A DNA stretch of 64,000 nt from assembly GCF_964204645.1 (NCBI RefSeq), contig NC_134027.1:14230485-14294484 (forward strand). The letters are read 5' to 3'. Of the stretch, positions 10,050 to 39,375 are shown piece after piece. The notes under the pieces are model-generated. The model had not been told where the DNA came from. It saw nothing but the letters and a program-made list of their open reading frames with translations, and made no database searches. A program made the position numbers and the translations under genes. The stretch comes from Tubulanus polymorphus (taxonomy: Eukaryota > Animalia > Nemertea). Position 1 is the stretch's first letter; the number at the start of each line of letters is the position of its first letter.

Positions 10050-10063
10050 AATATGTAAAATAA

Positions 10064-11408: not shown

Positions 11409-11432
11409 ATGCGTAATTATTTTGCTAAATAA

Positions 11433-11858: not shown

Positions 11859-11874
11859 TTTTTTTGCTAAATAA

Positions 11875-12285
11875 ATGGAAGATAAAGTTGATAATATTGA
11901 TATTATTCCTCATGATATAAATAAAGCTAAATTAAAAACATATTTAGAAAAACAAATATTAGAATTTGAAAGTGACTTAAAGATAAAAAAGAAAAAATAT
12001 TTGATTATAAGTGGTTCGGTTACAATTAGTTCTGTAATAACATTTCTAGCAATATTCAGCCCATTAACACCTTTAGGTATATCAATTGGCGTATTAGGAT
12101 TAAGTTCAAGTGTTTTAACTGGTATAAGTTCAAAATTGAATATAAAAAGTAATAAAGAAAAAATTAAAACTAATATAAAAGAAATTAATAAATTAAAGAA
12201 TACACTAGATTATATAATAAGTTTAAATGGTCATATAACAGTTGAAGAACAAGATAAATTATTAAAAGAATTAGTTAATTATTAA
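11875..12285 (+). CDS. Polinton two-TM coiled-coil protein
   Basis: 136 aa; hydrophobic hairpin flanked by Lys-rich coiled coils. Confidence 0.65.
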   Translation: MEDKVDNIDIIPHDINKAKLKTYLEKQILEFESDLKIKKKKYLIISGSVTISSVITFLAIFSPLTPLGISIGVLGLSSSVLTGISSKLNIKSNKEKIKTNIKEINKLKNTLDYIISLNGHITVEEQDKLLKELVNY

Positions 12286-12301
12286 TTTTTTAATTATATA
12301 A

Positions 12302-13641
12302 ATGGGGTTTCCAAAAGCTTTCCAATATAATAAATCAATTAAATATAATATTCCTGCAATAGATTTTAAGAAAAATATTACATATAAAAATGTAGTTTTA
12401 AATTCATTAACTAATTTAGAAATTTATGTTACTGAATCACAGTTTTTAATTTCTAAAATGGAAAATATATTTAATACATATGAAGTTACTTTTACTCGAG
12501 ATGAATACCATATATATAAAGTAAAATCTAATATGAAATATTGGCAGAACCAATTAGATTTTGCTGTTTATTGTGCAACAACAGGATGTGGAATAAGTTG
12601 GAATGATCATTTAAATAACTTAGATAAAAATTTGATGTATTCTGATTTAGATTAATTCACACAATATTTAGATTTCACACATATTTTCAAATCAGAATAA
12701 TATTAAATGAATTAGAATGTCCTTCACCCGGGTCTAAATATTTTAAAGAATTGGATAATAATATTAATCTATCTAAGTTTTATAAAATATGTAACGAATT
12801 TAATATAAATATTAATTCCGATTTTAGAGCGCATGGTAAATTGCAAGGTGTTGGTGAAGAGTTTGAAATAAAAAGAATTGATTATATGCATAGAATTGGA
12901 GCTTATCATAATTATAAAATTGATAATAATAATGGTTGGGTTAATTTCATTTTAGAAAATGGTGAAGGTTTTACAAAATCAGGTATACAAAGAATAAATC
13001 AATCTATTAGAACTTATTTAATTTGTATTCTAGGTGCGCAAGTTGAAACAAGATCCCCAATAATTGGAAATGATAACACTTCATTCGATGCGCAGAAACA
13101 ATTCAAAGTATTATTTGAAGATTCTATTCATAATGATAAAAATAGATCGATTCCAGAAAACATTGTAAGATATCAAAATTATTTAGATAAATCACATGTA
13201 AGACTAAATTATTGTATAGGCCCTAATCTATTAATTATTTCTAATGATTTAGTACTAAAGATGGGAAATATAATTGGTTATAATAATCTAATTAAAACTG
13301 CAACAATAAATAATTCATTTGGATTAAATGATATAAATAAAAAGATTATCACTGCTCCAAAATTAATGGAAGGTGAAAAAAATAAAAAACAAATTCAATC
13401 AACAGAAACTAAAACTAATAATATTAAATTAAATAATGATTCTAAACCGGATTATAATACATCAGAAAATATTAGAACTGATAATATTCAACATGAAATA
13501 ATTAAACTAAATGATGATAATAAATCCCATGAAAATACTAAATTAGCTTTATCTTGTATAGGAATTGTAATCGGAGGAATATTATATTTTAAATTTGAAT
13601 TTTGTTATTATGTAAATGGCAGAAGGCGGAGAAGATTATGA
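12302..13641 (+). pseudogene. Conserved-looking Polinton hypothetical protein with C-terminal TM, frameshifted
   Basis: Two ORFs in different frames; motifs WQNQLDFAVYCATTGCGIS and GFTKSGIQRINQSIRTYLICILGAQ. Confidence 0.6.
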
Positions 13642-15074
13642 AATGGGAGACATGGGAAATAATAATGAAGGATATATTGATGATGATTATAATGATGCAG
13701 AAACTAATATTGATGATGGTACTGAATCAGCATATAATTCTAATTTAGCAGATAGTGGTTCTAAGGCCCCATCAACAGAGGATTATATTAGAAGAACTAG
13801 ATCGAGAATAAATCCTGAAAATGAAAATCAAGGTTTATCAAGACAAGATTTAGAAAATAATGAATTTATATATAATTTCCAACCTGTATTTGAAAGGTCT
13901 GGGTATAATATAAATGATAGAGGCGCCAGACTTTTAGTAGAAAATTTAAAACTTTTTAAAGGTAAATATTATTATCATTTGGATGGTGATTATTATATTG
14001 ATATCACTAATCAAAGGACAAGACTAACTAAAATATCAGCGGAATCAACTTTGAAAAATTTAGAAACATTTAGAATTAAGAGAATAAGTAATAGTAATGA
14101 AATAACTGATGTTACACAAAAAGAAAGAGATGATAATATGCCAGAATTGAGTCAAAGAATTGATGACTTATTAAAAATAATCAATAAAAATTCAGAAACA
14201 GAAACAACTTCTGAACAGAATAAAACTTCCAAAACTAGTAAACTTAAATCAAACGAAGTTCAAACTGAAAAACTTTTACCGAATGGATTACTTGATGCAA
14301 CAGATCAAGAAATAGAAGCTTTAAGTATGTTTTCTAAAAAAAACAATTAGAGAAATAATAAGTATACGAAATGAAGCCGATAAAATTGCGCGCGAAAAAA
14401 ATATTAGATATAATAAAATTAAACCTTTAGAAAATAGATTATTTGACACCAGAAAAGAATTAGAACAATTAAAATTAGATAGAGAATTTAAAGTTATTGA
14501 AGAAATTGAATTTAAAAAAAGAAATGCATATTTAGAAAAAGAAATTGATGATTTAGAATATAACATAGAATTTCAGAAAGAAAAAATGGAATTATTATTA
14601 AAATCATATGATTATTGTATTAATAGATTAAAAGTTGTTGTTAAAGAGTTAATACTAAAACCAAATTCTGACATATCACTAAAAGATAGAATAAAATTAT
14701 TATTTAAGTTTGAAGGAATAACAATTCTTTCAATTCTAACAGCTGTAACTATGTTATTTACAACAATCGGTTTAGCTATATCAAATGCTTTAAAATCTAC
14801 TCCTACTCCCAATAAACCGGATAAACCCCCGAATGATAATAATTCTATACAAGATAAAGTTAAGGATGGTTTAAAGAAATTAGCAAAATATTTATGGGAA
14901 CTATCTAAAAAATCTGCTGCAGCTTTACCAGGAATTATTGCATCAATTGTTGGTTTTATATTGAAATCTGCAGGGAATATTATTAACTTTGCTGCTGAAC
15001 ATATTATTTTATTTTTAATTACAGTTGTAAGTGCTATTAATTTTGGATTAGTAAACATGATAAAAAATAAATAA
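13616..15074 (+). pseudogene. Acidic N-terminus/coiled-coil/C-terminal membrane protein, frameshifted in A-run near 14340
   Basis: ORFs 13616-14350 and 14586-15074 are linked by an open coiled-coil-like frame; C-terminal hydrophobic helices. Confidence 0.6.
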
Positions 15075-15094
15075 TTAATTTTTTTGTTAAATAA

Positions 15095-16342
15095 ATGAGT
15101 GGGAGTTATATCAATCCTTCTAAGAATCATAGAATATCTAATGCTATTAAAGCAGACAGATCACATCATATAATTACTCATAACCCTTCTAATATTAATC
15201 CCGATGAAACTTTATATGTTAGAATTCCTCGATTAACACAAAATACTTTTTATGTTCCAAATAGTATTTATTTATCAGCCGATATAAAAGTAATCGGTAA
15301 TAATAATAATTATATTGTTGATAATGTTGGAAGATATTTGATTAAAAAATTAACTATAAAGATTGGTCCAGAAACAGTTTTCTCATTAGATGATTATAAT
15401 TTATTTATGCATTATAAAGATGTATGGTTAACTAAAGAAAATAGAAATAATATGATTTTTCAAGGCATCCAATCAGAAAACCAAAATAAATTAAGATCAG
15501 AAGCTAATAGCGCAATATTAACTAATGCTGTAGATAAATTGATAAAAAGTATATATGGAAGCAAATATAAAATTCCATTAGACTTTGAATTGATGAATAA
15601 CAATGCACCTTTATATAAATACGCAATTCAAGAAGACGTTATATTCGAAATAACATTTGCTCCTGTAAATGAAATTGTATTATCTAGCGTTAATAAAGAT
15701 ATGGGTTATAAATTATCGAATATATGTTTAGAATATGATACAGTTACTGATGAAAATATTTCAAGTATAATTCAAACTCAATATAATCAAGGATTTTCAT
15801 TATTATATGATTATATTGATAAATTTAAAACTGTAACTATTAATGCAAATGATGAAATTATTAATGAGAATATTAACTTCCCAAGAAGATCTATTAAAGG
15901 TATATTAATATTTTTTACTATTGCAACATATACTAATGGCGCAATAAATGTTGATAATTATTATAATCCTGAAATAACAAAAGTAGAAATAACTATCGAA
16001 GGAATAGCAAATAAAATATTTTGTCAAGGAATGAGAATGATTGATCAATGGCCAGAAATTAGAAAACATTTTATGAATGAAAAAGTGAAATCATCTGAAA
16101 ATTGTAATATTAATCAAATTGATTATTATACCGGTAATAAATATGCATTATGGTTAGATTTTAGAACAACAGAGGATAATTCATTACATGGTTCTGGAAA
16201 AAAATTACAGAACACTAAAGATGGAATACAATTATTCATGACAAAGAATAAAGGAATCAAAAATTTCAAAATGCACATTTATATTATATCTGACGGGCAA
16301 TTAAATATTGTAAATTCTCAATTAAATAGTGTTATGTATTAA
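15095..16342 (+). CDS. Major capsid protein (double jelly-roll), intact ORF
   Basis: 415 aa beta-rich ORF (HNPSNINPDETLYVRIP, NVGRYLIKKLTIKIG, YKIPLDF, LSNICLEYD, PRRSIKGILIFF, YYNPEITKVEITIEG, ALWLDFR); size and position fit a Polinton-like MCP. Confidence 0.8.
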   Translation: MSGSYINPSKNHRISNAIKADRSHHIITHNPSNINPDETLYVRIPRLTQNTFYVPNSIYLSADIKVIGNNNNYIVDNVGRYLIKKLTIKIGPETVFSLDDYNLFMHYKDVWLTKENRNNMIFQGIQSENQNKLRSEANSAILTNAVDKLIKSIYGSKYKIPLDFELMNNNAPLYKYAIQEDVIFEITFAPVNEIVLSSVNKDMGYKLSNICLEYDTVTDENISSIIQTQYNQGFSLLYDYIDKFKTVTINANDEIINENINFPRRSIKGILIFFTIATYTNGAINVDNYYNPEITKVEITIEGIANKIFCQGMRMIDQWPEIRKHFMNEKVKSSENCNINQIDYYTGNKYALWLDFRTTEDNSLHGSGKKLQNTKDGIQLFMTKNKGIKNFKMHIYIISDGQLNIVNSQLNSVMY

Positions 16343-16378
16343 AATTTTTACTTTAATAAAAATATATATATATAATAA

Positions 16379-16954
16379 ATGGAAGGAGGTAAAGTACATA
16401 AACATATTCCATACACCGATACACATGAAAATAATGATGGTTTATATTATGTAATACCTTGTAATATAGCTTTGATATTTGATCCTATTTTCAAAATTTA
16501 TAAAACTAAACTAATAGAAATCGATAATAATAAAAGTGGTGTTGTTGATAATTTAAGTAATGTAATTGATAATAATGTAATACCTTCTACATCTAATAAT
16601 GTAATACCTACTACATCTAATAATGTAATACCTTCTACATCTATTAATGTAATACCTTCTACATCTAATAATGCAATAATATTAAATGTTAGTGAAAATA
16701 GAAATTATTGTGATTATTGTAAAGGTGAATTTTCAAACGCTCCATCAAATTGGAATAATCATATGAATACAAATTCACATATTACTAATGTTATAAAACG
16801 TGTTGGTTTAAGAGAATTTATAGAACACCCATTTAGATATGTTACAAAGTTTGTTTCAAATCAAAAAGTAAATGGTAAAGAATTATATGAAGATTTATTA
16901 TTAGCAACACCTAATAAAGATGAATTAGATATAACCGATGCTAATGAAATATAA
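16379..16954 (+). CDS. Hypothetical protein with (NNVIPSTS)n repeat and C2H2-like finger
   Basis: 24-bp tandem repeat at ~16570-16670; CDYC...HMNTNSH motif. Confidence 0.55.
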   Translation: MEGGKVHKHIPYTDTHENNDGLYYVIPCNIALIFDPIFKIYKTKLIEIDNNKSGVVDNLSNVIDNNVIPSTSNNVIPTTSNNVIPSTSINVIPSTSNNAIILNVSENRNYCDYCKGEFSNAPSNWNNHMNTNSHITNVIKRVGLREFIEHPFRYVTKFVSNQKVNGKELYEDLLLATPNKDELDITDANEI

Positions 16955-17619
16955 GGACCAAACACTGTAAATGAAATATTAGGAGCAAACACTAATAAAG
17001 ATAATAATGAAAATACAGGAAAGCGCATTGATAATAAAGATTATATGAAACTTAAATCAGAAGATAAAGATATAGTTGATATGACTAATAAGTATATCAA
17101 TAAACCAATTATTTATGAAGATACGGTAAAAAGGGTGAAGAATAAGTACAAAAATAATAAAGAATTTGAAGAAGAAAATTCGGTAGAGAATTTGAATAGA
17201 TTGTTAGGGTCTGATGATGAATTGGAGAGTGATGATGAAAGTGATTCAGAAAGTGATTATCTAACACTCAAAAAGTAATAAACGTTGAAAATTGTATAAA
17301 ATAATAGTAAATAAAAAAGGGGGGTTTAAGTATTAAGGTATCTAATACGTATCTAATACGTATCTAATACGTATTTAATACGTATTATTTGAAAATACCT
17401 TAAATTATATTTTTTTTAAATTTATATTAGAAACCTCAGTAATAATAAATAACCTTTATTATTTTCAAACTTATTCATATATTAGTTGAAAAAAATAAAA
17501 ATAAATTGGTTGAAAATTGTATGAATTATATTTATTTTAAAAAAGGGGGTTTTAAGTATTAATGTATTTAATACGTGTTTAATACGTATTTAATACGTAT
17601 TAGATAGATATATAAATAG

Positions 17620-18228
17620 TTATTTTATAAATTTATATTCATATGGAAATTGTAATCTCAGTAATAATTTTGAACCTTCATTATTCTTTAATTTATTCAT
17701 ATATTCATCATGTAATTCAGTAGGTATAATTTGATTTTCTTCCAATGATTGTTGCATAGATTTTTTATCTTTGTTATAAAATAAAACTAGAAATCTTATA
17801 TTCTCCCTAAAGTCTTTAACAATTGAATTATATTTTTGATTTTAAACCCATGTTATCCCAAAATGTCTCCCAGAGAAAGCTAGATAACATAACTCACTTT
17901 CTCTAACTTTTGAATCATGTAAATTTGCGCAATCATCTATAATGAATAATGTATTTGATCCTTTATAAGTATCAATTGCTATTTTAATACAATTATCTAA
18001 ATTTTCTTTTACTGTTTTAGGATTTAATATAATAAACTTTTTTATCTTAACTATGTCTCTATTATATGTTTTATTCATTTCATAAGTAGGACAAAATAAT
18101 ATTATATTATCAAAATAATTCTTATAAATAGTTTCTAACAAATCTAATATGAAATGTGTTTTACCACAGTTTGTTACACCAGTAACTAACATATTATGCG
18201 GTTCACATATAAATAAATCTTTATTCGT
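17620..18228 (-). pseudogene. A32/FtsK-like DNA packaging ATPase
   Basis: Walker A GVTNCGKT, Walker B FIIDD, SGRH motif; in-frame TAA at 17842 then NQKYNSIVKDFREN; probable start mutated ATG>ACG at 18228. Confidence 0.9.
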
Positions 18229-19333
18229 TTATTCTTTTAATTTTACTAGATAAAATCCATTCATTAAATTTATCACCATGTCCTTTATATTTCACCAAAG
18301 AATACTTTTTTCCTTTAAGAGTTTTTGTTTTCAATACTTTTTCTATTTTGTATTCTATTTCATCTGGATTTGGTACAAGTGATAATTCTTGTTCATAGAA
18401 ATAACCTAATATTTCTTCATCTTTTAAATCTTCTAATTTATAAACAAATGGTTTAGTTAATATTATCTTTTTAATCTTGAATATTTCTTCAGTAAAATTT
18501 GGAGTATAACCTTTATAAAATGTTTTTCTATATTTAGATATTCTAACATGTTGTCCAATTTTAAATTTTGGTTCTCCGAAATCAGGTGTAACAAACACAC
18601 CATACAAATTATTCCAAACTATTTCTGAATTATCTTCTTTTCTAGCTTGTATAGGTTTCATATTTATAGAACTATGTTTAGAATTATTATAACCTTTCAC
18701 TAAATCATCTAACACATCGATATATTTATATGTTTCATTAGCAGTAAAATATTTCCACATTCTAGTTTTCAATGTTTTATTAAACCTTTCTATAATAGAT
18801 GCTTTTTTATCTGAGTGTGTTGAAAAATATTTTACATCGTTATCAGATAATAGTTTTTAAAAATGTTTGTTATAAAATTCCTTACCTTCATCAAATTGTA
18901 TCTTATCTGGAATAGCTTCTTTAAATATAGATTTAAAAGCATTTGTCACTTCTATTCCAGTTTTATTTTTGATTGGAATTGACCATGCGTATCTACTGAA
19001 TATGTCTATAACATTCAGTATCCAGAAATATCCTTTGTTGTATTCCTCTAAGTTCTTCATGTCAATTAAATCTGCTTGCCATTGTTGATCGATATATGAA
19101 ACCATAACTTTTCTTGTTAAATAAGTTTTATCCATTTTCCTGTGGATTTGATATGTTGGTTGATTTTGTAACCATGATTTCAATTCACTATATTTTATAT
19201 CACCGTGTGGGTGCCGTACGGCACCATTTTCATTATCAGATTTAATTATATTCCATAATTCTGAAACGTTAGAATATGATACTTCACTTTCTGGGTTATA
19301 ATATAAATCTCTTAAATATTGTTCTTTTTTCAT
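18221..19333 (-). pseudogene. Retroviral-like (rve) integrase with C-terminal chromodomain
   Basis: WQADL, IDIFSRYAW, QFDEGKEF, IIERFNKTLK (DDE); chromodomain YKIEKVL...LVKYKGHGDKFNEWI; single in-frame TAA at 18857. Confidence 0.93.
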
Positions 19334-19339
19334 CTTCTT

Positions 19340-19708
19340 TTAATCCATTAATAATAATCTTGGGTTATTTTCAATGGTTTTAGGATTTGACTTATTTTCT
19401 GGTATGATAGGTTTATTGTCATTGGAATCATATTTATCATCAGATTTGAATTTTGATTTATATATTACACCAGATAATATAATAACTGTTACTAATCCAA
19501 TTGTAATATATAATTTATAATTACTTCCAGCATTAGAAGAATTAGATGGATTATTATTTGAATCAATATAAGATAAAGTCTGTGATTCATTTATATCAGT
19601 TAATTTCTTTTTCTTAGCTTTTTTTAATTCTGAAGATCTTTTACCTAATTCTCTTGCCCATTTGATTTGTTTCTTGGATCTAGCCTTTTTCTTAACGCTA
19701 TCACTCAT
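19340..19708 (-). CDS. Basic N-terminus plus single-TM Polinton protein
   Basis: 122 aa intact ORF, TAAATG start overlapping the upstream stop. Confidence 0.6.
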   Translation of the reverse strand: MSDSVKKKARSKKQIKWARELGKRSSELKKAKKKKLTDINESQTLSYIDSNNNPSNSSNAGSNYKLYITIGLVTVIILSGVIYKSKFKSDDKYDSNDNKPIIPENKSNPKTIENNPRLLLMD

Positions 19709-20303
19709 TTATTTTAGTTAATTTTTGTTCTGAATCATTTTCTGTTTCGACGTTTGGTTGTAGTACATCTGTTTCATTCTTACCTGAATTATATTCCATA
19801 GGCTTGATGTTCGAAAATGTTATGACGCCAGTAGAAATTAATGTCATAACCGATCCTAATTGAAATGAAGCATAACCAACCCATTTTTGTAATTCAGTCA
19901 TAACTAAATAGTCATTTTTCGAATCACTATATAATTTATTTTCATCATCAATTGGTATTAACTGGTTACATAACTTAGAATAACATTTGACAATACCATC
20001 TGAAATAGAATCATTTATTCGGGCTAATCTTGCCTCTTCATAAATCTTAAAATATTTTATTACTTTATCTGGTTTCATAGCATCTAGTTCTTGATAAGTT
20101 AAAATTTTTCCCAAGAAACCCTTAGATTTCCCGCCAGCAATTAATAATTGAAGATGATGCTTACAATATAAATAGTTTTCATAATCAATATTACAATTAA
20201 CTTGAGCACAATTAGTTACAACTGTATCTTTATTATCACTTATACCCAAATCATCTAATGTCTTTTCAATATCAATACTATTCTTACTCGATTTCTTTGA
20301 CAT
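19701..20303 (-). CDS. Polinton hypothetical helical protein
   Basis: 200 aa intact ORF with TAAATG start. Confidence 0.6.
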   Translation of the reverse strand: MSKKSSKNSIDIEKTLDDLGISDNKDTVVTNCAQVNCNIDYENYLYCKHHLQLLIAGGKSKGFLGKILTYQELDAMKPDKVIKYFKIYEEARLARINDSISDGIVKCYSKLCNQLIPIDDENKLYSDSKNDYLVMTELQKWVGYASFQLGSVMTLISTGVITFSNIKPMEYNSGKNETDVLQPNVETENDSEQKLTKINE

Positions 20304-24568: not shown

Positions 24569-27500
24569 CTGCCCTAATTTGACAAAATGCTGTATGTCCG
24601 ACACCCCATATTTTTTCTAATTCAACATTTTTGTTTTTTCCACAGCCATCCTACAATATATGTCAGAGATGTTCACAAATGGGTAAAAATGTGTATATAA
24701 TCATGTATTACCATGTGATAATGGTATCCTATGAAAATAATTTGTTTTTTGTTTTTTTAGAAAAAAATACATACTTCAGTTTGTCAAATTGTTTAAGTCG
24801 ACGCGTTAGATGTCGTCCTGTAGTATGTTTAAGTTACTGCATTTTGTCATAAAAAATTTAAGAGATGCCGCTTTCTGTAAAAGCAGCTATATAAAAATAA
24901 ACTAACAATATGCTTTAAGTTGAAATAAAATAATTTAATTTTAACTTTGAATAATTTCATTTGAACAATTTATCAATGAAAATACAGTATGTAATTTCTA
25001 ATAATTTATGCAGTTATGATTTCGCCAATTTAAACCATTTGAATTTTCACTGAAAAATGATTTCTAACAGTTTAGGCGGTAATTTCTCAAAACAGGGTAC
25101 ATTTCAACAATTTTTTTATTTAATAGTCTGCATCAATTAAGTCGGCCGAATTTTCACTGACAAATAATGATTGCCAAAAACTCCTGCGATTTTCAGGCAT
25201 GATTGGGCAGAGCTTGTCAATAATATCTTGCTTCTTTCTTGAAGGGATACCTCTCGGCTGGGATCGAGCTCGGGAATAAGTCTGCCCTTCAATCATCTTA
25301 GCTGCTATTTTCTTTTTCAAAAACAACCCAGACATGAATTCTTTTGCTTCATACTTCTCTTTCCAATACATGCTTACTGATTCACTTCTGAAACTAACTA
25401 TCTTCACATTTGCCAACAACGGCTTATTTGTATATTTGCCGCTGGATGTCTCATTTTCATACAAAATGAAATCAGCCGGTGACATGATTATACTTTTCCC
25501 ATAATTGTCAATAATTTTGATAAAGTCGTCAAAGTCGTAAACGTTTTTTTGGGATCTCATCCCAGTTTCGACTTTCGAATGAAAGGTATCCACACTCATG
25601 AAAGTATGGCCTTTTTCTAAGTATTTAATAGTTACTGATTCTACATTTGGGTTTACATTTGCCTCCCAACAGAGAGCCGTGTAGAGGGTCCAGTTTTTGT
25701 TTTGAGCCCCACAGTTATCACAGTAAAACTGGAAATGCTTTATATCTCTATGATCTCTAATGACTTTTATAAAGGTGCTAGAGATATCTTCGTCATTACG
25801 ACCACTCACGCCCTCATGCCAGATAATGCCCATGGGCTTAATCTTTGAATAATTTTTCCCTAGAGGTGCAAAGGTTTCATTAAAAACTACTAACCGCCGA
25901 GTAAATATTGCAGTTTTTACCCCTGGTAGTCTGGGTAACATGATTACTTTTTCAAGATCTACTGAGCATACTACTAGAGTGTCCCCATTGAAGGGTACTT
26001 CTGCATCATTTCTATACATTTCACGGGCCTTTCGAGCATTTTCTGTATGTTCCGTCCATTCACTACACAAGCTACAATCATTTGGTGAGACACAAACATG
26101 CTTTTCATGGGCCAAACAGATTTCACATTCTTCTTCGCCCAAAACAGCAAAACTAATCTTCATATCAGCCACGATACGCCTATAAGTGTCGTATGATACT
26201 TGATTGTCAGCATTTTTTATAATGTAATCCTTGTGCATCTCAGTAATGTTTATTTCGTTTGTAAGGTATCTCGTGTGAGGGGCATGTTCCCGCCTGTAGT
26301 GTGAGCAATGGGGATTGAAGGATTCTATGTGATTCTTAATCAATTGCCTTTTTTCATCTGACATTGCATGTTTAGGCGTATGCCTGCCTCTTTTATCGGG
26401 TGGTGGTGAGAATGATTCCATACCTGGAGATAGCTCACTAAGAACACTTGTCAGAATGCGATCTGATGTGTATCCCAGGGTCTTCAGGAAAAAATTCTGG
26501 CAAACCGTTTGGGATGTATTATTCACATCAGGCATGTGGAATTTTCTGTATTGTGTTTTCTTGCCGCCTAGTCGTTTTGTTGGGTATATTTTAACATGGT
26601 TGAAAACCCATGCTCTCCTCCTATCATCTTCCTCCATATCCCAAAACAATTCATGGATAACAGCTCTTCTTGCTTCAGTAAATTTTTCATTACACTTTTC
26701 ACGGGTGCATTTGCACGTTTTCAAAAGTGGATGTTCCGCCTTTAATTTAAGAAATTGATCTCTTTTGCTGAGGCGTTTTCGCTTTTTGGAACCAACAGTT
26801 TTGGCTTGTGGAGATTCATTGTCAGGTTCACCAGTAGCAGCTGCTGGGGGTTGAACTTCATTAGACTCACCGGCAACAGCGACACGTTGCACTTGCAAAT
26901 CTCCGGCAGGCTCATTATTATCAACTCGGTTTTCTGGCTCGGAAATAGAAACTTGGATAACGGGCTCACCAGTTTGGTTGGAATTGCCTATCTGTTCAGT
27001 AGGCCTTTTGGTATTTTCTGTCCATGGTTTTTTCTGTAACTCCGTGTACGTATTATTTCCTGGTGGCGAATAATTGACAATTGTTGGTTTTAAAGGCGCA
27101 GGTTTTGGGGCATCTATCACGCCTTCCTCTCTTAAAGCACTGAAAATCATTGAGAATGACAGCTGAGCCATCTTCCAAGTCCTGTAAAATAAGAGTGAAA
27201 CCTATATAAAAAGCCCTACATAAATGAGCCGATTTTGTACACTTTAGTGTCAAATTATCAGTGTATAACGGCTGTCATTTTATTTTGGTTTTTGAAACAC
27301 AGATCTTACCTTGAAATGTATTGCTCTTGTAAATGAAAGCCTAAAAAATCTTGCCTGTTCTAAAATGCTAGACCTCAAACAAAAAAATCCTTTAATTGCA
27401 ACAATTAAAGCTGTTTGATTTTATAAAAAAAACACTACTTTACTTTTACAAAATGAAGTATGTTGTCAGAAAAAATTGACAAAACGCAGTAAGTCACAAA

Positions 27501-27726
27501 CATACTTCATTTTGTCAAATTATGGATACATACTTCAGTTTGTCAACTTTAATACCAATTGCTTAGGTAACATACTGCGCTTTGTCAATTTATATCTCAA
27601 AAACTATAGGAGATATTAATTTTAGGTTTCCGCCATTGAAAAGAGCGGGTTAAGTTTACCCAGAATCCATAAAAAAGTCATTTTTTGAATTTTTCGGACA
27701 TACAGCGTTTTGTCAAATTAGGGCAG
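24569..27726 (-). mobile_element. Sola (Sola1-like) DNA transposon, apparently intact
   Basis: 33-bp TIRs CTGCCCTAATTTGACAAAA(T/C)GCTGTATGTCCGA with 1 mismatch; 4-bp TSD AGTA (a single AGTA occurs at the related empty site near 38460); subterminal CATAC..TTTGTCAA repeats. Confidence 0.85.
25120..27171 (-). CDS. Sola-type DDD transposase, 683 aa uninterrupted
   Basis: VCQNFFLKTLG, CSVDLEKVIMLP, DNCGAQNKN, KYLEKGHTFMSVDTFH motifs; putative 5'UTR intron 27183-27310 (GTAAG...TTTACAG). Confidence 0.85.
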   Translation of the reverse strand: MAQLSFSMIFSALREEGVIDAPKPAPLKPTIVNYSPPGNNTYTELQKKPWTENTKRPTEQIGNSNQTGEPVIQVSISEPENRVDNNEPAGDLQVQRVAVAGESNEVQPPAAATGEPDNESPQAKTVGSKKRKRLSKRDQFLKLKAEHPLLKTCKCTREKCNEKFTEARRAVIHELFWDMEEDDRRRAWVFNHVKIYPTKRLGGKKTQYRKFHMPDVNNTSQTVCQNFFLKTLGYTSDRILTSVLSELSPGMESFSPPPDKRGRHTPKHAMSDEKRQLIKNHIESFNPHCSHYRREHAPHTRYLTNEINITEMHKDYIIKNADNQVSYDTYRRIVADMKISFAVLGEEECEICLAHEKHVCVSPNDCSLCSEWTEHTENARKAREMYRNDAEVPFNGDTLVVCSVDLEKVIMLPRLPGVKTAIFTRRLVVFNETFAPLGKNYSKIKPMGIIWHEGVSGRNDEDISSTFIKVIRDHRDIKHFQFYCDNCGAQNKNWTLYTALCWEANVNPNVESVTIKYLEKGHTFMSVDTFHSKVETGMRSQKNVYDFDDFIKIIDNYGKSIIMSPADFILYENETSSGKYTNKPLLANVKIVSFRSESVSMYWKEKYEAKEFMSGLFLKKKIAAKMIEGQTYSRARSQPRGIPSRKKQDIIDKLCPIMPENRRSFWQSLFVSENSADLIDADY

Positions 27727-29433
27727 AGTAGTGATATTTTTATCTCTTCTTTCTACGAATCGATTGTTGAATTTAGGACATTGCTCGACTGAACGCAACT
27801 GAGGAATTTTTATCGCCTAGTTTGTGCTGTATGTTAAAGAGCATCATATATTGCTTCGAATTCGGCAACACAAGAGCATCATATATAGGCTTTAATACTT
27901 CGAATAGTAACAAGTAACAAGAATATTGCTAGTAACAAGAATATTGCTCAACGGATTTACTTGAAACTTTCGTGAGATGTACGGAACTCAGGTACCTTGA
28001 GGTAAGTCTCAGGGATCTTTGATCTTCGTTCATCCACTAGGGGGTGTTTTACTTTTAAAAATTCTGACATCGAAAAGTTAGAGAAAATTTTTTGTCCTTG
28101 ACTTTCCAGCTTCGGGCGAGCACGAAAGTTGTTCAGGACAGCCCGGAGGCTAAAAAAGTCAATGGCACGCCCTATCTGCGATTAACCGTTTCGGCTCTAC
28201 AGGCTTGAAAATGGGACCCCAAATTTTTCAATGAGATTTTTGCTCCTAGCTCCTTAACCGTTGGAGATAGAATCGTGGTTGCAATGAGTGATCAGTAGCC
28301 CTTGACAAGACGCTTGTATCGATGTATGGTATAACTATGTAACTCATATGGTTCTCCAGTAGCGCCACCTATAAGACGCTGGAAAACGCATTTTCATCTA
28401 TATCGACTAAGAGAATCAATGGATTTCTATAAAAATTCATTCACATGTACCTGGTTACTAAATGCAACGAACCCCTCACATGATTAGTTCCTATTTTAAC
28501 CACTAGGGGGCGTAAATTTTGAAAAGTCATTTCAGCATCCATTTTTCGCATGTAATGCGGTCTGGTTATTATGAAAATCACAAAACTTGGTATAAGTACA
28601 TAGAAATGTGTGTAATATGCCAACCTGCATGATTAGTTCATACAACCTTGGAGTAATCATTTGACTGGAGAGAGCTCGCCTATTCATTCGCTATACACAC
28701 TGTGGCCTATTCATGTAGCACCACTCGCGTCGCTTAACCGGAAGCTTTACTACCAGTATGCGCAGACGGGCTCAATCGAATACGACCTATTTAACGCATG
28801 CGCAGTTGTTACAAATATGTCCGCGCCGTTGTGAAGATTTTATTGCAAAAAGAATTGTCAAAATCGACCGATATTTAAGGAAATTACAGATTTTTACCGC
28901 GCTTATCACAAACAGTACTCAATTGAATGTAAGTGAAAAAGAATTCTTCATCAAATTAAAACCCGATTCTTCCGGATAATGGCACATACATCATATTAAA
29001 GATCGAGAGTTGATGATAATGAAATAGTAAATGTCTGTGTGTTGCGCTTCGTCGCGAAATCAATATTTGTAATGAAAATTCCCTAGTTACTGTGGTGGTA
29101 ATACAATATCCTCACTGATGATAGACTTATCATTTCTGGCCATTGGCGTTGTTGCTTTGCCAGAATCAGATTCAAAACCGCTTTATCTAGTTAATTATAT
29201 TCCTAGTCTATTTGTATCTCTCAACATATTATTATTCACTTACTTTTATCTTTTTTTTTCAGTTAGACTTTTGTTATGATTGCTTGTTTTGTTTGCATGC
29301 GAGTCTGGATGGAGTGTGTCATATGATTTTGAGCTATGGAAGGTTAGCCTATCTTCAATTATTGCAAACATAGGCTTTTCATCATACAATTAACAAATAG
29401 TGTTTTTTAATATGTGCTTTTATATTTTTGTAG

Positions 29434-32422
29434 AGGAACATTCATGCATAGCTTTGTTTTGTCGGATATGTGGCCAAGAACGTGCACTGATCGCCGACGG
29501 AAAAAAACAAATAAACAAGGAAACTCATCAACGAGATATTAACCTAATATGGAAAAGTGATGTGAAAAACAATCCGTCCAGTTATCCTCCGTATTTATGT
29601 AAGTCTTGCGACTCAATAATAAGGCGATGGCGGAAACGAAAAAATTCAAAAAAGAGCCTAATAACGTTACCGTTGAAATTAACGACTGGACCGATGATAA
29701 CGTTACGTGTCATAGCTGCATCCAAAATGTTGACAGTCTTTCCCAGGAATTTCCGGACAGTTTTGTACAGAGATTTAGTGAACTATTTAACCAGAACCAA
29801 TTTTTTGTCAATGTGTCCCAGGAAAAATTAGCGGCGTCTAAAAATGTGAGCCTGAACGATTTGTGTAAATACGTTGAGATAAACAACGATTTTCAGTGTG
29901 CAGTGTGGGTCTATGGTCACGAGATTGACCTCGAGAAGTTTCGAATTCCGAAATGTGTGTCGGCTGATGAAGATTTAATGTTATTTGTGAAACTTGTATC
30001 AAGCTGGAATGTATGCGCTGGAATTGCTGGATTTTCTGATCTATGTCGATTGCGTGCTCCGACTCCAACAGCTGTTTTTACAGATCGAAGTGGTGAGACA
30101 GTTGCCAGAGAAGAAGTTAATCCAGTGCAGTGTATTCGCCATGTCAACTGTGATTATTTTTCCTTAAAGTTATTGTGTGATGCCTGTGAAGGATACAAGT
30201 CGACTCTGAGAAGTCTTAAATCTAAAGCTGAGAAGAAAGTTGAATCCAAACCGACTGCATCATCTCATCATCGAAATGTCCAGAGCAGATTTATTGATGA
30301 AAATGAAAAATGTGCAACAAAATAGACAATTTTGGAAAAAAAGAGCAAAGTCATTATCAGCAAAAATTGAGCAGGAAATTGAAAACAAAGGAGTGAATTT
30401 GAAATCTAAATTAGATAAGTCATTGAGCCAAGTCATCCAAGATAACCCTCCTACACCTGATTCAATTGCTGAATTACTCTGGCAACAGCAAGTGACATAC
30501 AACAGCAAAAGCGAAAAAAGGCAGATGCGCTGGCACCCGTTACTCATCAAATGGTGCATTGCTCTGCAAGCCACATCGAGCAAAGCGTATGATCTTCTCA
30601 GAGACTCAAAAATTCTCGATTTGCCACACAAAACAACCTTGAGAGACTATACACATCACCTAGATACGAAAATCGGATTTTCACAGCAAATCATGGAATT
30701 CATAAAAGCGGACATTTCTTTTGATTGCTTACTAACTACCCTTTGAGAAAAATGTGATCATTGCTTTTGATGAAATAAAAATCAAAGAAGGCCTAGCATA
30801 TTCTTCCGAGACTGGAGAATTAGTCGGATTTGTGAATTTTGGAGACTATTTAAATGAAATTGAGGAGTTAGATTCCGAGAACACTTCACCTGCCCATGCA
30901 ACCCATTGTATATCATTCATGGTTCGTGGTATTTTCAAACATTTGAATAATGTATTTGGATATTTCCCGTGTGTTGGGTTCACCAGTCACCAACTATACG
31001 TTTCAGTGTGGGAAGCCATAAAAATTTTGGAGATTAATGGCTTCCATGTAAGAGGCATTGTATCCGATGGAGCATCAGCTAATAGAAAATTCTATCGAAT
31101 GCATGGTTCGGAAGAATCGCCTGAAAATGATATATTCTTCTCGTCAAACCGATATCGTCCGGGATCGAAAATATACTTTTTCTGTGATGGACCTCATTTA
31201 ATGAAAACAACCCGAAATAATATAGAGAACTCGAATTGGCATAATAAGACAAGGAATTTAGAGGTAAAAATGAATGTAAAATATGTTGGCTTATTGATCT
31301 TCACGTTCATATATTCATATTTTTTCAATTATATTTCGGTACAGTTGAATGGTCTGCCTATTCAGTGGACTCAATTGATCAGATTGGTGGAAGAAGACTT
31401 GGGCATTCAAGTATTTAGAGATGAAAATGGTGATTTTCAGGAAAACAGAAACAATGTTGGCCAGTTGAGGACACTTCCACGACTGGCCGATGAACACTTA
31501 CGTTTAACACCAGGATCTCGTATGGATGTAAAGCTAGCAGCGCAGGTACAAATTCTTAATGAAACTTATCTTATATTTATTTATTTTATGATACTAGTAA
31601 AACTCTCCACGATAAATTATATTTTAGGTGCTCAGTGGCTCTGTTGCTTCAGCCCTAAAACTGAAGATTGATAAAATACATGAATCGATTTTTTGATTGC
31701 TTGAATGTGTCAAATAGTGTTGATAGTATCCGTCAACGCAATAAGTATATTGCACCATTCACAAGAGAAAACCTGGACAGATTAGATGTAAGCATAATCT
31801 CGGAGTCAGTCGTGCATTCAGTTAATAAACTTGGTTGCTAAAGATTGCAAATTTTTTATTTCTCATTTTTTTCAGTGGTTGGAGAATAAATTCATACCAT
31901 TCTTTGAAAATTGGGAAATTCGGTGTCTCCGAAAAGTCGATTTGCCAATCGGATTACGAAGAAGAATGTGTTTAAGTCGAGAAACACTTGAAGGACTGCG
32001 AATAACTGGTAAGTTTCATTGATGGATATCATATTATTTATTACATAAACAATTACACTGTATGTACATATACATAATACATTGTATGGTTTGAAATCAA
32101 AAACTATATGAAATGCTTTGTTACAGTCAAATCCGCTGTCAATTTGATTAAAGAGCTTTTGAACGAAGATGGTGTACAGTACGTATTGACAGCAAAATTT
32201 AATCAGGACCCGTTAGAAATATACTATAGCAAGGAACGTAGATGTGGAGGCTCAAATGATAACCCGTCCGTGAAAGAGTTTCAACAAAATGCAGGAAAAC
32301 TGCTTGTTGTATGTTCCAAGACAATAAAAGGTTCTGCGAGAGGAAACTGCACAATCGTTCAAGAAAATGGCGAATCAGTCATCAATTCAGCACCTATACC
32401 TAGACGAAAATCAACTCATTAA
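29434..32422 (+). pseudogene. P-element/THAP9-like transposase, spliced, several frameshifts
   Basis: RWHPLLIKWC...SKAYDLLR...LPHKTTLRDY, AFDEIKIK, ATHCISFMVRG, VSDGASANRK, CDGPHLMKTTRNN, RMDVKLAAQ|VLS, FFDCLN, NQDPLE...GGSNDNPS; GT-AG introns at 31264-31344, 31546-31627, ~31787-31875 and ~32009-32126. Confidence 0.9.
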
Positions 32423-32433
32423 ATGGTAAAAAT

Positions 32434-34076
32434 TCAATGACACTCATTCTGAGTTTTTAATTTTTTTCTTAAACATTTTTCTCGTTTTTTGGGAGTTTTA
32501 CCATCTTTCTGTGACAGGTACATGTACGCGCGACTGAAAGCATGAAGTCGCACTGTAACCCAGCAGTCAACCACTTTAGCGAACAACGAATCTTTAATTG
32601 AATCACATTCTGTATTTGCCACTAGTAATGACCAGCTTGTTTGTATTGAATCGTCATTCAAAACTGTCTCTTCAACATTTGAACGCAAATCTTGACGAAG
32701 TCTCATAACATTATTTGTCTTTAAGATTGGATTAATAATGGTTTCTAACGTTTCAAAGAACCTGTATGCAGTCGCTGACATCTCGAATAAACCCCCCCTG
32801 TTCACAATTTCTGTCCATTTCTTGGTATATACCATGAAATTTTGTGTACTTGACACTCCCGGAGACACTTTCCATAACTTTAATAAGTTCGTAAATATAT
32901 GTGCACGTTGATTTTTACATTTTCTGTAGTGATTAATCAGCTTGGCACATACATTACTACCCAAATAGTACACAACTTGCTTTTCAGTCTCTGTCAAGGT
33001 CAAATTACCTGCATTTATTTCCAGTGATTGTTTATCATAATTTGTGTACCTTTTTTTCAGAATTTCTTTAAGAAGATTTTCAAGAATTATCTGTATGAGA
33101 AAATGGTCACTACCCATGGAAGGAGTTTCTGATGCTGTTTTGAACCTTTGTATAAAATTCATGGCTGGTGCCCAAGAAGCTACTTCATGAAATTTCGAAA
33201 AGACTGCGATTTCTTTTTTTGGAAACTGTGTTTCATTGTCTCCCGCTGTCACAGCAATCCAAATTTTTTCCAAAAGTTCTGTTAACAATTGATTTAAAGT
33301 GTCTTTATAATTCGGGTTTTCAGTTAATTTTAAAACTGTGGTAGCATTTTCCAAAAGTTCCGAATTATTTATATCCGAGTTAAGAATATCCTTTACAGCA
33401 TCACAAAATAGCTGAATTTTTTCCTGTTGGAGCTCACTCAATGAATATTTTGCCTTGTCTGAAAATGAAATAATATGATGTTAAAATATTATTATTATAT
33501 ACTATATAGAGCAATTAATTATTAATATTAAATTATTATTAATGCAAAAAATAATTATTTTAAATCACCATGCGGGAATACTTACTCTGAAAGTTCTGAG
33601 TTCTTTTTTTCGTTTTTTTTTACTGTTGGAACATTTGATTTCTTCTGAGATTTTACTTGAAGCTCTTTGACTTTGTCATCCTTTATCGAATTTGAGGAGT
33701 CTTTCAGAACAGTGTGTTCAGCAGCTTGCCCTACAAGAAAGAATAAAATATCTGTACTTACAAACGATTATTTCGTGAAGATGATTAGATCCAGATGGAG
33801 AGACAGAAAATTAAGAAATGACCAACCTTTTTTGCAATTGGAACACAGAAAAACTCTGGCGTTCTCTTCCAATCGTTTTTTCAAATTCGGCACACATGGC
33901 ATATGATACCAAACTGTGCTGCAAGCGTGTGATTCACACGCAATGATATCGACCAATTCTTGAGACTGACATGAACAGTAAATTTCAAATAAATTCGAAA
34001 TATCACTGTCTTCAGATTCGGAATTATTCTCAAAATCAGATTGACTAAACCCGTACGCGATGTTATCATTCGCCAT
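32434..34076 (-). CDS. Second transposon gene: N-terminal PHD finger plus helical domain (exons 34076-33827, 33730-33586, 33458-32434)
   Basis: PHD C4HC3: YCSC...IACESHACSTVWYHMPCV...FLCSNC; canonical GT-AG introns; last exon open for 335+ aa. The exon 2/3 join is 1 nt out of phase, probably an indel in the A-runs at 33604-33621. Confidence 0.75.
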
Positions 34077-34856
34077 TTTGTCCAGTGTTATTTACTAGTT
34101 GCTAAGCGCCGAGTTACGCCGAGTGCTGACGGAAATTGCCGAAGTCGAATCCCCGCCCACTGTGTAGCAGGTGCGCGATGATTGACTGCAACTATGATAA
34201 GCTGCGCGAAATGAATAGGCGAGCTCTCTCCAGTCAAATGATTACTCCAAGATACAACTACCACCAGGGGACTGTGAAAACAACGATTTCTGCTCCTAGG
34301 TTCTTAACCGTTGCAAATAGAATCGTTGTTGGTATGTGTGGTTAGTAGCCCTTTACAAGACACTTGTATTGATGTTTGGTTTAAGTAGATAACTCATATG
34401 GTTCTCTAGGAGCGCCACCTAGAAGTTGCTGGAAATGCATTTTCATTGGTAGCTACTAAGCGGATAAAGGGATTTCTATGAAAATTGATATACATGTACC
34501 TGGATATAAGATACAACGAATCCCTAACTAACATAATTAGTTCCTATTCTAACCACTAGGGGTGTTAATGTTGAAAACTCATTCTAGCATCAGTTTTTTC
34601 GATTGTAATTCAGTAGTATGCTAACCGGCAAATTACCGGCCACTTGGGCATGGTGAAAGTACCGCATCTTCGTTATTCTCGGTGTCATTTCCCCTAACCT
34701 TGGTACATTAGAACTTTTCAGTTGTATCCCATGTAGATCAACATAGCCATGTTATCAGCTGACCCCAAGGTGGCGCTCCTTATCCAGCAAGGCATAAACC
34801 CGTTATCGCTGCTTTGCAGCTATATTTATTATTATAATAATTATTATTATTATTAT

Positions 34857-34960
34857 TAGGGTTTCTGCTGCCTTCGCAGAAACCCTATTGTATTCCTGCT
34901 GATTATTATTATTATTAGGGTTTCTGCTGCCTTCGCAGAAACCCTATTGTATTCCTGCTG

Positions 34961-35003
<43 letters not shown>

Positions 35004-36875
35004 TCTTTTTCACACCGGATCTTACTGAAAGGATATAAACAACTGCAACTTACTTTCACTGTCGGTGAAACCATTCTGTATCACAAGTACTACGCTGCAT
35101 AGACAAACACTGTACGTGATATTAATCAGAATTGCACTGTTTACTCACTGTGAGCCTCTAAACATCGAAATTTAAGCCCGATTCAAACAGTATCCATCTA
35201 CGTATGTGTATTGCCTACGTGTCATTCCCACAGCGCGTCAGTGCGTCTGTTTGTGTCAGTGTCCATATAAGCAGTGATAGAGCTGGTGTACTAGATCTGT
35301 AGTTTTTTAGTATCTTTATATATATGTGGCGCACTGAATGGGGTCAGTCTCGAGTGAACGCAACTGAGGAATTTTTGTGCCGCATATACAAGCAATAGCA
35401 TCCTTGCAGTAACTTCGCTGGATAGAGCTAATGAATGCAGCTACGGTATCTATACGCGCGAGCCTGGATGGCTATATTCTGTTAGCATTACAATATTCCT
35501 TGACGGATTTTCTTGAAACTTTTGTGAGATGTACGGATCACAGGTACCTTGAGGTAAGTCGAAGGGATCTTTGATTGGGGACCCCGTTCACCCACCAGGG
35601 GGCGTTTTACTTTTGAAAATTCTGACATCGAAAAGTTACTCTGTGAGAACAATTTTTGTCTTTGAGTTTTCAGCTTCGGCCGAGCACGAAAGTTGTTCAT
35701 AACAGCCTGGAGGCTAAAAAACTCAATGGCACGCCCTATCTGCGATTAACCGTTTGGGCTCTACGGGCTCGAAAATGGGCCCCCAAATTTTTTAATGAGA
35801 TTTTTGCTCCTAGCTCCTTAACCAGTGGAGATAGAATTGTGTTTGCAACGAGTGACCAGTAGCCCTTGCGAAGACGCTTGTATCGATGTATGGTATAACT
35901 ATATAGCTCATATAGTTCGCCAGTAGCGCCACCTATAAGACGCTGGAATACACATTTTCATCTATATCAATTAAGGGTATCAATGGATTTCTATAAAAAT
36001 TGATACACATGTACCTGGTTACTAAACGAAACGAACCCTCATATGATTAGTTCCCATTTTAACAACTAGGGTGCGTAAATTTTGAAAAATCGATTTCAGC
36101 ATCCATTTTTCGCATTTAATGCGGTCTGTTTATTGTGAAAATCACAAAACTTGGTATAAGTACAAAGACATGTGTGTAATATGCCATCCTGCATAGATAG
36201 TTCATACAACTGCCACCAGGGGACTGTGAAAACAACGATTTTTGCTCCTAGGTGCTTAACCGTTGGCGATAGAATCGAGGTTGCAATGTGTGGTTAGCAG
36301 CCCTTTTCAAGATACTTGAAGTGATGTATGGTTTAAGTAGGTAACTTATATGGTTCTTCAGGAGCGCCACCTACAATTTGCTGGAAATACATTTTTATTC
36401 ATATCTACTAAGCGGATAAAGGGATTTCTATGAAAATTGATACACGTATACCTGGATATGAGATACAACTAACCCCTCACATAATAAGTTCCTATTCTAA
36501 CCAGTAGGAGGCGTACATTTCTAAAACTCATTCTAACATCCGTTTCCTTACGTGTAATTCAGTCATTTTATGATACACCTAAACAAAAACCTGGTGTGAG
36601 TACATATACATAAGTATAGTACGCAAACCGCCAAAATTAGTTCATACAACTGCCACTGGGGAATGGTAAAAAATACTGTATCTTCGCTATTCTCGATTTC
36701 CTCTAAACTTGGTACATAAGTACTTTGCGCGTGGTAGCCCTTGTGGGTCAACGTATCCATGTCATAAGTTGACCCCTAGGTGGCGTTCCTTTCGGTGAAA
36801 TGTTTGCATGCACCCTTGTACGACATTGTATCCAGCAAGGCAGAAACCCATTATCGCTGCTTTGCAGCTATATTT
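34857..36875 (+). mobile_element. Family A Helentron-derived element, complete copy with duplicated 5' hairpin and ~440 bp internal tandem units
   Basis: 5' hairpins at 34857 and 34917, (ATT)n, internal units at ~35800-36240 and ~36240-36680, 3' GCAGAAACCCATTATCGCTGCTTTGCAGCTATATTT. Confidence 0.8.
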
Positions 36876-39375
36876 AGGGTTTCTGCTGCCTTCGCAGAAA
36901 CCCTATTGTATTCCTGCTGATTATTATTATTATGATTATTATTATTATATTCTTTTTCACACTGGATCTTACTGAAAGGATAAAAACAACTGCAACTTAC
37001 TTTCACTGTCACCAAACCATTCTGTAACACAAGTACTATGCTGCATTGACAAATACTGTATATAATATTAATCAGAATGCCACTGTTTACTCACTGTGAG
37101 CCTCTAAACATCGAAATTTAAGACCGATTCAAACAGTATCCATCTACGTATGTGTATTGCCTACGTGTCTTATTCCCACAATACTGCAGTACGTGTATTT
37201 GAGTGCGTATCCGTATATGCAGTGATAGAGAGCCCTGTTCTAGATCTGTAGTAAAAAGTATTTTTATCACTCTACGAGTCGATTGTTTTGCCGTTGAAAT
37301 AGGACATTCTCGAGTGAACGCAACTGAGGAATTTTTATAGCCTTGTTTGTGCCGCATATACGTACGTACAAGCAATAGCATCCTTGCAGTAACTTCCCTG
37401 GATAGAGCTAATGAATGCAGCTATCGATACGCAAGAGCCTGGATGACTTTATTCTTCTGCTAGCATTACAATATTCCTTGACGGATTTACTTGAAACTTT
37501 CGTGAGATGTACGGAGCACAGGTACCTTGAGGGATCTTTGATTTGGGACCCCGTTCACCCACCAGGGCGTGTTTTACATTTGAAAATTATGACATCGAAA
37601 AGTTACTGTGAGAAAATTTTTTGTCTTTGACTTTTCAGCTTCGGGCGAGCACGAAATTTGTTCAGGCTAAAAAAGTGAATGGCACGCCCTATCTACGATT
37701 AACCGTTTGGGCTCTACGAGCTCGAAAATGGGCCCCCAAATTTTTTAATGAGACTTTTGCTCCTAGCTCCTTAACTGTTGGAGATAGAATCGTGGTTGCG
37801 ACGAGTGATCAGTAGCCCTTGCGAAGACGCTTTTATTGATGTATGGTATAACTATATTACTCATATGGTTCTCCAGTAGCGCCACCTATAAGACGCTGGA
37901 ATACGCATTTTCATCTATATCGACTAAGGGTAGTAATGGATTTCTTTAAAAATTGATACACATGTACCTGGTTACTAAACAAAACGAACCCCTTATATGA
38001 TTAGTTCCCATTTTAACCACTAGGGGGCGTAAATTTTGAAAAATCGATTTCAGAATCCATTTTTCGCATTTAATGCGGTCTGTTTATTATGAAAATCACA
38101 AAACTTGGTATAAGTACAAAGACATGTGTAATATGCCATCCTGCATAATTAGTTCATACAACTGCCACCAGGGGACCTTGAAAACAATGATTTTTGCTCT
38201 TAGGTCCTTAACCGTTGGCGATAGAATCGAGGTTGCAATGTGCGCATAGTAGCCCTTTTCAAGATACTTGTATTTATGTATGGTTTAAGTAGGTAACTCA
38301 TATTGTTCTCCAGGAGCGCCACCTACATTTTGCTGGAAATGCATTTTCATTGATAGCTACTAAGCGGATGAAGGGATTTCTATAAAATTGATATACATGT
38401 ACCTGGATATAAGATACAACGAATCCCTAACATAATTAGTTCCTATTCTAAACACCTAAGCAGTAGTGTTACTTTTATCTGTTCTACAAGTCGATTGTTT
38501 TGCCATTGAATTGGGACATTGCTCGACTGGATGCAAATGAGGAAATACTCCGCGTGTTTTTTCACGAATCATCGTTACAAAAGCACCGTCAGGACGTAAA
38601 CATCGAAAATTTAGCCCCATTCAATGGGGCGACATGTTTCTCGAATCGTCATCCCGTAATCAACCCGCAGGCCGATTGTCACTTCGATTATCAATTCAAG
38701 TATAAATGAACTAATTTATTGCCGCAGACTTCACATTCAGCCGCGGTCTTCAAACAGTAAATTCTAACAATAGCCCATTTTCCTCATCAAATCATACTAC
38801 GAATCGACTTGTGTCACTACATCATTGTTCCGGGGATCAGCTGTGAGTTTCTCCTCATCATGAGAATCAAATCGAGTACAAATTAATTTATTACTACCAC
38901 TGATTTGGCTGCAGGCTTCAAGGAGTTAGTTTAACAATACCTATTTTTCTTTACCAAATTAACCGTGTATTTACTAAGATAAATCTTTAGTGTATCATAA
39001 GTCGTAGGCCTAAACTAAACACGCCGAAGTCGTAGGCCTAAACTAAACACGCCGAAGAGATATAGCGGAGAAAAGCTGTTGTGTCGACGAGGTATCAAAA
39101 TAAAAGAACATATTACTGTATTCATCAGCGGGCTTCAACCTCTATATCAATACCATCAATACTCTATATTTCCTACAGTGCATACCGATCATTGTCAAAT
39201 GCACAAGGTATTTTCTAAATACAAGTATATAACACACTCCTATCCGTATGCTGGACTCACACTTGTCATTCGGAGTAAGCGTTTGCTGTGGGGCAAAGGA
39301 GATCGTTCGCTGTGACGGTTGAAGTGTTTATCGAGTTTTACGCAACCTTAAGGCTTTAGGCCTACCGGTACTGAG

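Follow-up and report, generated by a model that had tools for sequence, protein, structure and literature searches.

The window, a stretch of 64,000 nt from Tubulanus polymorphus (NC_134027.1, 14,230,485-14,294,484), contains a broken two-gene transposon of the P superfamily at 28647-34251. In our reading, to which we assign a probability of about 0.8, a zinc module of the RAG1-NZD/Chapa type replaces the THAP finger of its transposase, and the transposase tail is encoded by a convergent gene that carries a PHD finger. The products of the two genes likely form one enzyme, and the module likely binds the element ends. The evidence shows the ends, the 7-bp duplication, the P-type HTH, RNase H and GTP-binding parts, the fusion of module and transposase in relatives, the homology of the module to that of RAG1 and of gene 2 to the P tail, and a single branch holding all module carriers.

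Ends and insertion site

The element is a cut-and-paste transposon of 5.6 kb. Its perfect inverted ends and its target duplication (42 nt and 7 bp) agree with the terminal inverted repeats and 7-8 bp duplications of the P superfamily; PMC3698922 gives a 7-bp duplication also for 1360 and Galileo. The terminal features are as follows.

28640..28646, no strand: left target-site duplication, 7 bp, with the identical 7 letters 3' of the right end
28647..28688, + strand: left terminal inverted repeat, 42 nt, complementary to 34210-34251 at 100%
34210..34251, - strand: right terminal inverted repeat, pairing with 28647-28688
34252..34258, no strand: right target-site duplication, repeating 28640..28646

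Sequence on both sides of the element (window 27774-28646 and 34252-38600) belongs to a high-copy repeat whose units recur about every 1950 nt. In other copies of this flanking repeat, the 7-letter target is present once, at an empty site. The empty site was also found in X5 reads, 370 of which join 28639 to 34252 and share the 7 letters. Related loci L027 and L052 are likewise flanked by 7-bp duplications. Loose ends with unlike flanks were seen at both termini of the element, pointing to probable insertions at further sites.

Structure of the transposase gene

The + strand encodes a P-type transposase of six exons, predicted from sequence, with four breaks.

29336..29342, + strand: predicted first coding mini-exon with the start codon, GT donor and AG acceptor, phase matching
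29434..29645, + strand: first (C4) finger of the NZD/Chapa-type module; His and Cys at the N-terminus, last helix very basic
29639..29654, + strand: break 1, two A-runs, frame one base short, gapless in all versions compared
29648..29719, + strand: C-terminal half of the second finger (Trp, Asp replacing His, CxxC) in the transposase frame
29720..30322, + strand: conserved Cys-rich middle domain lacking a Pfam match, then a coiled coil; break 2 at 30274
30210..31263, + strand: P-type HTH and N-terminal part of RNase H, including catalytic Asp motifs one and two; break 3 at 30731
31345..32008, + strand: GTP-binding insertion in three exons (31345-31545, 31628-31787 and 31876-32008) with GT-AG junctions; break 4 at 31662
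32127..32422, + strand: last exon with the catalytic Glu motif (TNP-like_RNaseH_C, E 1e-8), a stop shortly past the GNC motif and no C-terminal domain

The first exon that the initial annotation had sought is thus predicted 5' of the zinc module. It is followed by a predicted phase-1 intron (29343-29433), whose acceptor ends at 29433, just 5' of the zinc-module exon. The HTH and the N-terminal part of RNase H matched Tnp_P_element (E 5e-5) and TNP-like_RNaseH_N (E 1e-19). Both RNase H profiles, N and C, were above cut-off, indicating a P-type RNase H DDE core. The GTP-binding exons of the window were identified by motif only, and relatives pass the TNP-like_GBD cut-off. Pfam gave no RING or RAG1-core match in the window frames scanned, and the core is P-type rather than CMC- or Transib-type. 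A canonical P or THAP9 transposase has the C-terminal domain in the same polypeptide; here that domain lies on the convergent gene. The early stop after the catalytic Glu is common to the full-length relatives examined.

Three of the four breaks are missing from some sequenced copies. At break 2, five of six X5 reads have 8 more letters; at break 3, all seven X5 reads have 4 letters fewer; at break 4, an X1 contig has 29 more letters. Break 1 is present in all copies compared. With all four break lengths corrected, the gene would have 886 codons, close to relatives with 887 and 889 residues.

The middle domain (window 29720-30220) is rich in Cys and His, spans about 170 residues and separates the N-terminal module from the coiled coil. 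It matched nothing in Pfam below E 0.1. It is conserved in module-bearing relatives and in other relatives.

The zinc module is related to the RAG1 NZD

The initial annotation had proposed a zinc module of the RAG1 and Chapaev type where P elements have THAP. The window peptide alone gave only zf-AD in Pfam, below cut-off (21.7 vs 28 bits), and had no match as a single PDB query, so the identity of the module was settled through relatives. A search with the RNase H part returned 61 proteins, three of them already annotated as RAG1_imp_bd. When a profile of ten P-type N-termini was compared with PDB, the best match was the mouse RAG1 NZD (21WB, E 1.3e-10), indicating sequence homology to RAG1 89-223. 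Full-length RAG1 came next, followed by ZADs at 4e-4 (ZNF276 ZAD) and 0.011. The N-terminal profile retrieved 1830 proteins from 1.84 billion representatives; among the best 150 of them, 41 extend into the P-type region. RAG1L and RING-bearing proteins were among 57 other profile matches scanned.

Joined with X, the two frames of the window reached 54.3 bits against a profile built from 12 carriers of RING-bearing or RAG1L type, a test that is not fully independent, as these carriers were found via a profile containing the first part of the window peptide. The maximum of 1000 shuffles that kept the C/H positions was 21.1 bits (mean 1.7). The piece after the shift contributes only about 5 bits.

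THAP was matched by none of 31 P-type module carriers and was found in none of the 8 window frames scanned; sister lineages have THAP in that slot. A module in the place of THAP, as first proposed, is supported.

ZADs bind one zinc and form dimers. A generic ZAD-like single finger for dimerisation, with a likeness to RAG1 that stems from shared ZAD ancestry of the first finger, was considered as an alternative. The zf-AD score of the window peptide agrees with it, and 12 of the 31 carriers also scored best on zf-AD, below cut-off. A zinc-free model of the module (pLDDT 82; 60-69 in the second-finger part) retrieved ZADs over the first finger (Z 7.4-8.6), and several module carriers have no second finger. 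However, 21WB outscores the ZADs on the family profile by six orders of magnitude, in an alignment that covers both fingers. The RAG1_imp_bd cut-off was passed by 7/31 carriers and the zf-AD cut-off by none. All eight RAG1 ligands are complete in 15/34 P-type domains, and swaps between His and Cys indicate a real second zinc site. We consider the single-finger explanation highly unlikely. The likeness to ZAD lies in the fold of the first finger, whereas most full P-type carriers here have ligands for a second zinc. As to the fold searches, three of them did not list 21WB, and zinc-free models match the NZD NMR fold poorly according to 10.64898/2026.01.24.700457, where a basic patch at helix 4 is given as the feature separating NZD from ZAD. 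Taken by sequence comparison, homology of the window module to the RAG1-NZD/Chapa type is supported.

Zinc ligands of the second finger

According to 10.64898/2026.01.24.700457, the RAG1 NZD ligands are four Cys, then a His plus His-CxxC. The first finger of four Cys is present in the window copy and its relatives. The second finger of the window copy departs from the RAG1 pattern. An Asp stands in place of the second His before the last CxxC, and the N-terminal His is one residue off, so the copy does not have the type I finger, which takes an N-terminal His together with His-CxxC. In 7/34 P-type domains, a Cys precedes the first CxxC by five residues; six of these domains lack one His, the window copy among them. 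The window copy, P0015, P0073 and P0096 have this Cys variant in common, and the residues concerned are candidates for a type II-like site. In the window copy, the second zinc is predicted to be held by the last CxxC together with the His and Cys at the N-terminus, a two-plus-two arrangement like type II of the preprint. Some other P-type carriers have lost the second finger. It may have been lost or re-liganded several times later on.

The one-base shift is shared by both sequenced versions

The zinc peptide starts at 29434, with the first-finger CxxC pairs at 29460-29471 and 29598-29609. The last CxxC (29708-29719) is in the next frame, which runs on into the transposase. The peptide and the 1-nt shift in an A-run were located at 29434..29730, where the initial annotation had placed them. 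An X2 contig is identical to the window over 29432-30074, shift included. A diverged version on an X4 contig has 7 other letters and 0 gaps over 29493-29689, and 14/14 X5 reads of this version have substitutions and no gap at 29654-59. An assembly slip was ruled out as the cause, both sequenced versions being equally one base short. An intron spanning the shift was also rejected: the only strong donor would cut a CxxC, and there is no acceptor before the Trp.

Both sequenced versions of the element are broken; in the diverged one, a separate stop lies at 29876 (15/15 X5 reads). Since both versions are dead, an old deletion shared by them is the simplest reading of the shift. The synonymous excess between the versions is weak: in the transposase frame over 29668-30166 it amounts to 9 of the 22 changes that were listed, and 13 further differences fall outside that list.

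A programmed shift (-1 frameshifting or slippage) would yield a short zinc-finger repressor in addition to the full transposase. The retention of the shift in both versions, whereas the three other breaks are missing from some copies, is consistent with it, as are two in-frame slippery heptamers at the shift and three proteins (P0009, P0011 and P0031) that start near the shift point. However, the downstream stem-loop is no better than shuffles (z 0.20) and is disrupted by variants, and one version has a defective second heptamer. The separate stop of the diverged version and nine loci that encode the module region in one frame also argue against it. A programmed shift is very unlikely, and the old shared deletion is retained as the simplest reading.

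Fusion in relatives and history of the module

The fusion of module and P-type transposase was confirmed in intact relatives. Nine of 80 metagenome loci encode both in one frame, and in three of them this frame is complete, free of introns and 900-910 codons long; a further locus is broken. Fusion proteins were also found in named hosts: lancelet, starfish, brittle star and hydroid.

In a tree of the catalytic region (65 rows, after 51 truncated and 6 near-duplicate rows were dropped and one row was relabelled for a second-finger remnant), all 31 module rows fell on one side of one branch with support 100/99. A quick tree of 122 rows gave the module clade a support of 91. The carriers were set apart from THAP-bearing and other N-termini, with THAP in sister P0055; the THAP labels were assigned by motif, and P0055 alone is backed by Pfam. 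The tree is unrooted, has no outgroup and samples mainly around the module clade. As all module carriers lie on one side of the branch, a single acquisition by the P-type clade is likely on these sequences.

In the tree of the module domain, 4 of 54 inner branches were starred, and P-type rows interleaved with RAG1L and RING-bearing rows. With this poor resolution and an unrooted transposase tree, the trees give neither donor nor direction of transfer, and the relevance to the origin of the RAG1 non-core region, put forward with the first description of the module, does not follow from them. On sequence grounds, the module likely moved between unrelated transposases, with the P-type clade as a third transposon lineage carrying it.

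P-type elements might themselves be the donor, with the two-finger module arising in them or being relayed by them to the ancestors of RAG1L and Chapaev. The interleaved rows would fit this, and one-finger and two-finger forms both occur in the P-type clade across cnidarian and deuterostome hosts. Yet the one-finger forms lie dispersed among the two-finger ones, as expected of losses, the carriers make up one branch among THAP and other N-termini, and the domain tree is too weak for any order. We regard a P-type donor as improbable; acquisition by one P-type ancestor is the reading that we keep.

Repeated NZD modules without a transposase core occur in P0065, P0066, P0067, P0072 and P0077, which are long proteins of low complexity and possibly domesticated. 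The C-terminal end of P0065 is the P-type middle domain. A sister clade (P0022, P0028, P0033, P0041, P0043-P0045 and L013) has a short basic N-terminal motif that is neither THAP nor NZD. Viral contigs were screened for relatives and gave 18 pattern matches, none of which was a relative.

A convergent gene encodes the transposase tail

The initial annotation overlooked that the transposase has no C-terminal domain and that a convergent second gene (gene 2) encodes this tail. Gene 2 is predicted to have three exons and to encode a helical protein with a PHD finger.

32434..33458, - strand: last exon of gene 2, helical bundle and detached P-transposase C-terminal domain (about 32503-33003)
33586..33730, - strand: predicted linker exon, one base out of frame at a homopolymer near 33613
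33827..34076, - strand: predicted first exon with the PHD finger (PHD E 0.018, below cut-off)

Contigs vary by 1 or 2 letters at the homopolymer near 33613. At the equivalent position in gene 2 of L007, PHD was matched with E 3e-9.

The gene 2 family profile had a sole PDB match, 6p5a_B (E 6e-5), the C-terminal chain of Drosophila P transposase. Tnp_P_element_C was found in 4 of 20 gene 2 members. A model of gene 2 overlays residues 617-734 of P transposase with Z 12.0 (next 7.2) and rmsd 2.2 over 118/118 residues. With Foldseek, the same model gave nothing below E 0.001 and did not retrieve the P tail; gene 2 of the window as a single PDB query had no match. The profile and the overlay show that gene 2 is homologous to the P-transposase C-terminal domain. 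A weak search among 7990 candidates gave no longer protein with a fused tail.

Gene 2 is convergent at 21/80 loci, upstream at one and on the transposase strand at none. At L022:3692-4720, a homolog lies upstream of the transposase in divergent orientation. Where 2.5 kb or more of downstream sequence is available (n = 23), gene 2 is present at 14 loci and missing at 9. It is paired with module-bearing elements (L003, L005 and L007) and with THAP-type elements, so the split likely came before the exchange of THAP for the module. At L027:4093-5112, L048:3683-4708 and L059:2922-3935, all in the THAP clade, the N-terminus of gene 2 is a C2H2 finger and not PHD.

The tail of Drosophila P is attached through a flexible linker and touches both transposon and target DNA (PMC7776569), making a split at that point plausible. 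In the sequence of events that we propose, the tail would have been split off first, since gene 2 is also present in THAP-bearing sisters; a single ancestor would then have exchanged THAP for the module. THAP in Drosophila P anchors the enzyme at sites next to the ends (PMC7776569). The module may have taken over this role, with its basic last helix binding DNA near the element ends. Gene 2 would supply the DNA-contacting tail in trans, giving a two-subunit enzyme, and its PHD finger might act as a reader that steers the enzyme to chromatin.

Gene 2 could instead be a passenger, derived from the tail but by now dispensable for transposition, such as a regulator. Its N-terminal addition varies (PHD in two elements, C2H2 in 3/20 members), and its absence from 9 of the 23 long loci is also in line with a passenger. 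On the other side, no transposase examined carries a tail of its own, the Drosophila tail makes many DNA contacts in the structure (PMC7776569), and the pairing of transposase and gene 2 is kept across NZD, THAP and other clades. A passenger is rather unlikely; we prefer gene 2 as a probable subunit of the transposase.

Comparison with known systems

Drosophila P transposase (PDB 6P5A/6PE2), THAP9, 1360 and Galileo share with the element the HTH, the RNase H split by a GTP-binding insertion, the DDE motifs and the terminal inverted repeats, and the tail domain of gene 2 is homologous to that of the superfamily. The element differs from them in three respects: NZD takes the place of THAP, a further conserved domain lies in the middle, and the tail is encoded by a separate convergent PHD gene.

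RAG1 and RAG1L have a homologous two-finger module (PDB 21WB; Pfam RAG1_imp_bd), and P-type relatives keep its order of His, CxxC, CxxC, His, CxxC. The P-type module is the short form without the vertebrate helix H2, as described for invertebrate RAG1L. Unlike in RAG1 and RAG1L, it is on a P-type and not a Transib-type core and is accompanied by no RING; the window copy also has Asp for the second His and the extra N-terminal Cys. Chapaev (Chapa types I and II) has the same N-terminal module, and the predicted two-plus-two ligands resemble type II of the preprint, but the catalytic superfamily of the window element is different and RING is missing. ProtoRAG/RAGL likewise has two convergent genes within inverted repeats, with NZD on the transposase and PHD on the partner. 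However, gene 2 is an all-helical detached transposase tail and not the RAG2 propeller, so the common layout is an analogy.

According to Kapitonov and Koonin 2015 (PMC4411706), no further transposable element is known to carry the Chapa domain, and 10.64898/2026.01.24.700457 names Chapaev as the one lineage besides RAG1/RAG1L to keep NZD consistently. The origin models of both sources rest on that restricted range. The P-type module clade is a counter-example to both statements. The supplementary table of structural hits in 10.64898/2026.01.24.700457 names sporadic lancelet proteins, which may include P-type carriers. Our literature search, with Repbase, Repbase Reports and subscription journals outside its scope, gave no description of NZD together with a P transposase and gene 2.

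A whole P-type clade with the module suggests that the module moves between unrelated transposase superfamilies, which makes it a weaker marker of common descent. The clade also offers a handle on NZD function, an open matter for RAG1, as the module sits in the slot of a known end-binding domain and the THAP-bearing sisters are a natural control. The split tail, if true, makes this a two-subunit P transposase. A wider scenario would be an undescribed ancient clade of two-subunit P transposons that converged on the ProtoRAG layout, with its NZD as donor or relay for the RAG1 and Chapaev module and the His/Cys swaps as a record of second-finger evolution; it is a speculative and doubtful one.

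Other features of the window

Another DNA transposon, unrelated to the P-type element, lies at 24569-27726; its inverted ends are 33 nt long, and it has subterminal repeats. It contains an open frame of 693 codons (25120-27201, - strand) with a weak DUF7869 match; comparison of this frame with a RAG1L protein gave no similarity. In the region 6001-20000 of the window, the GC content is 21-25%, and the GC and AT skews are both strong, with a switch of sign near 18000.
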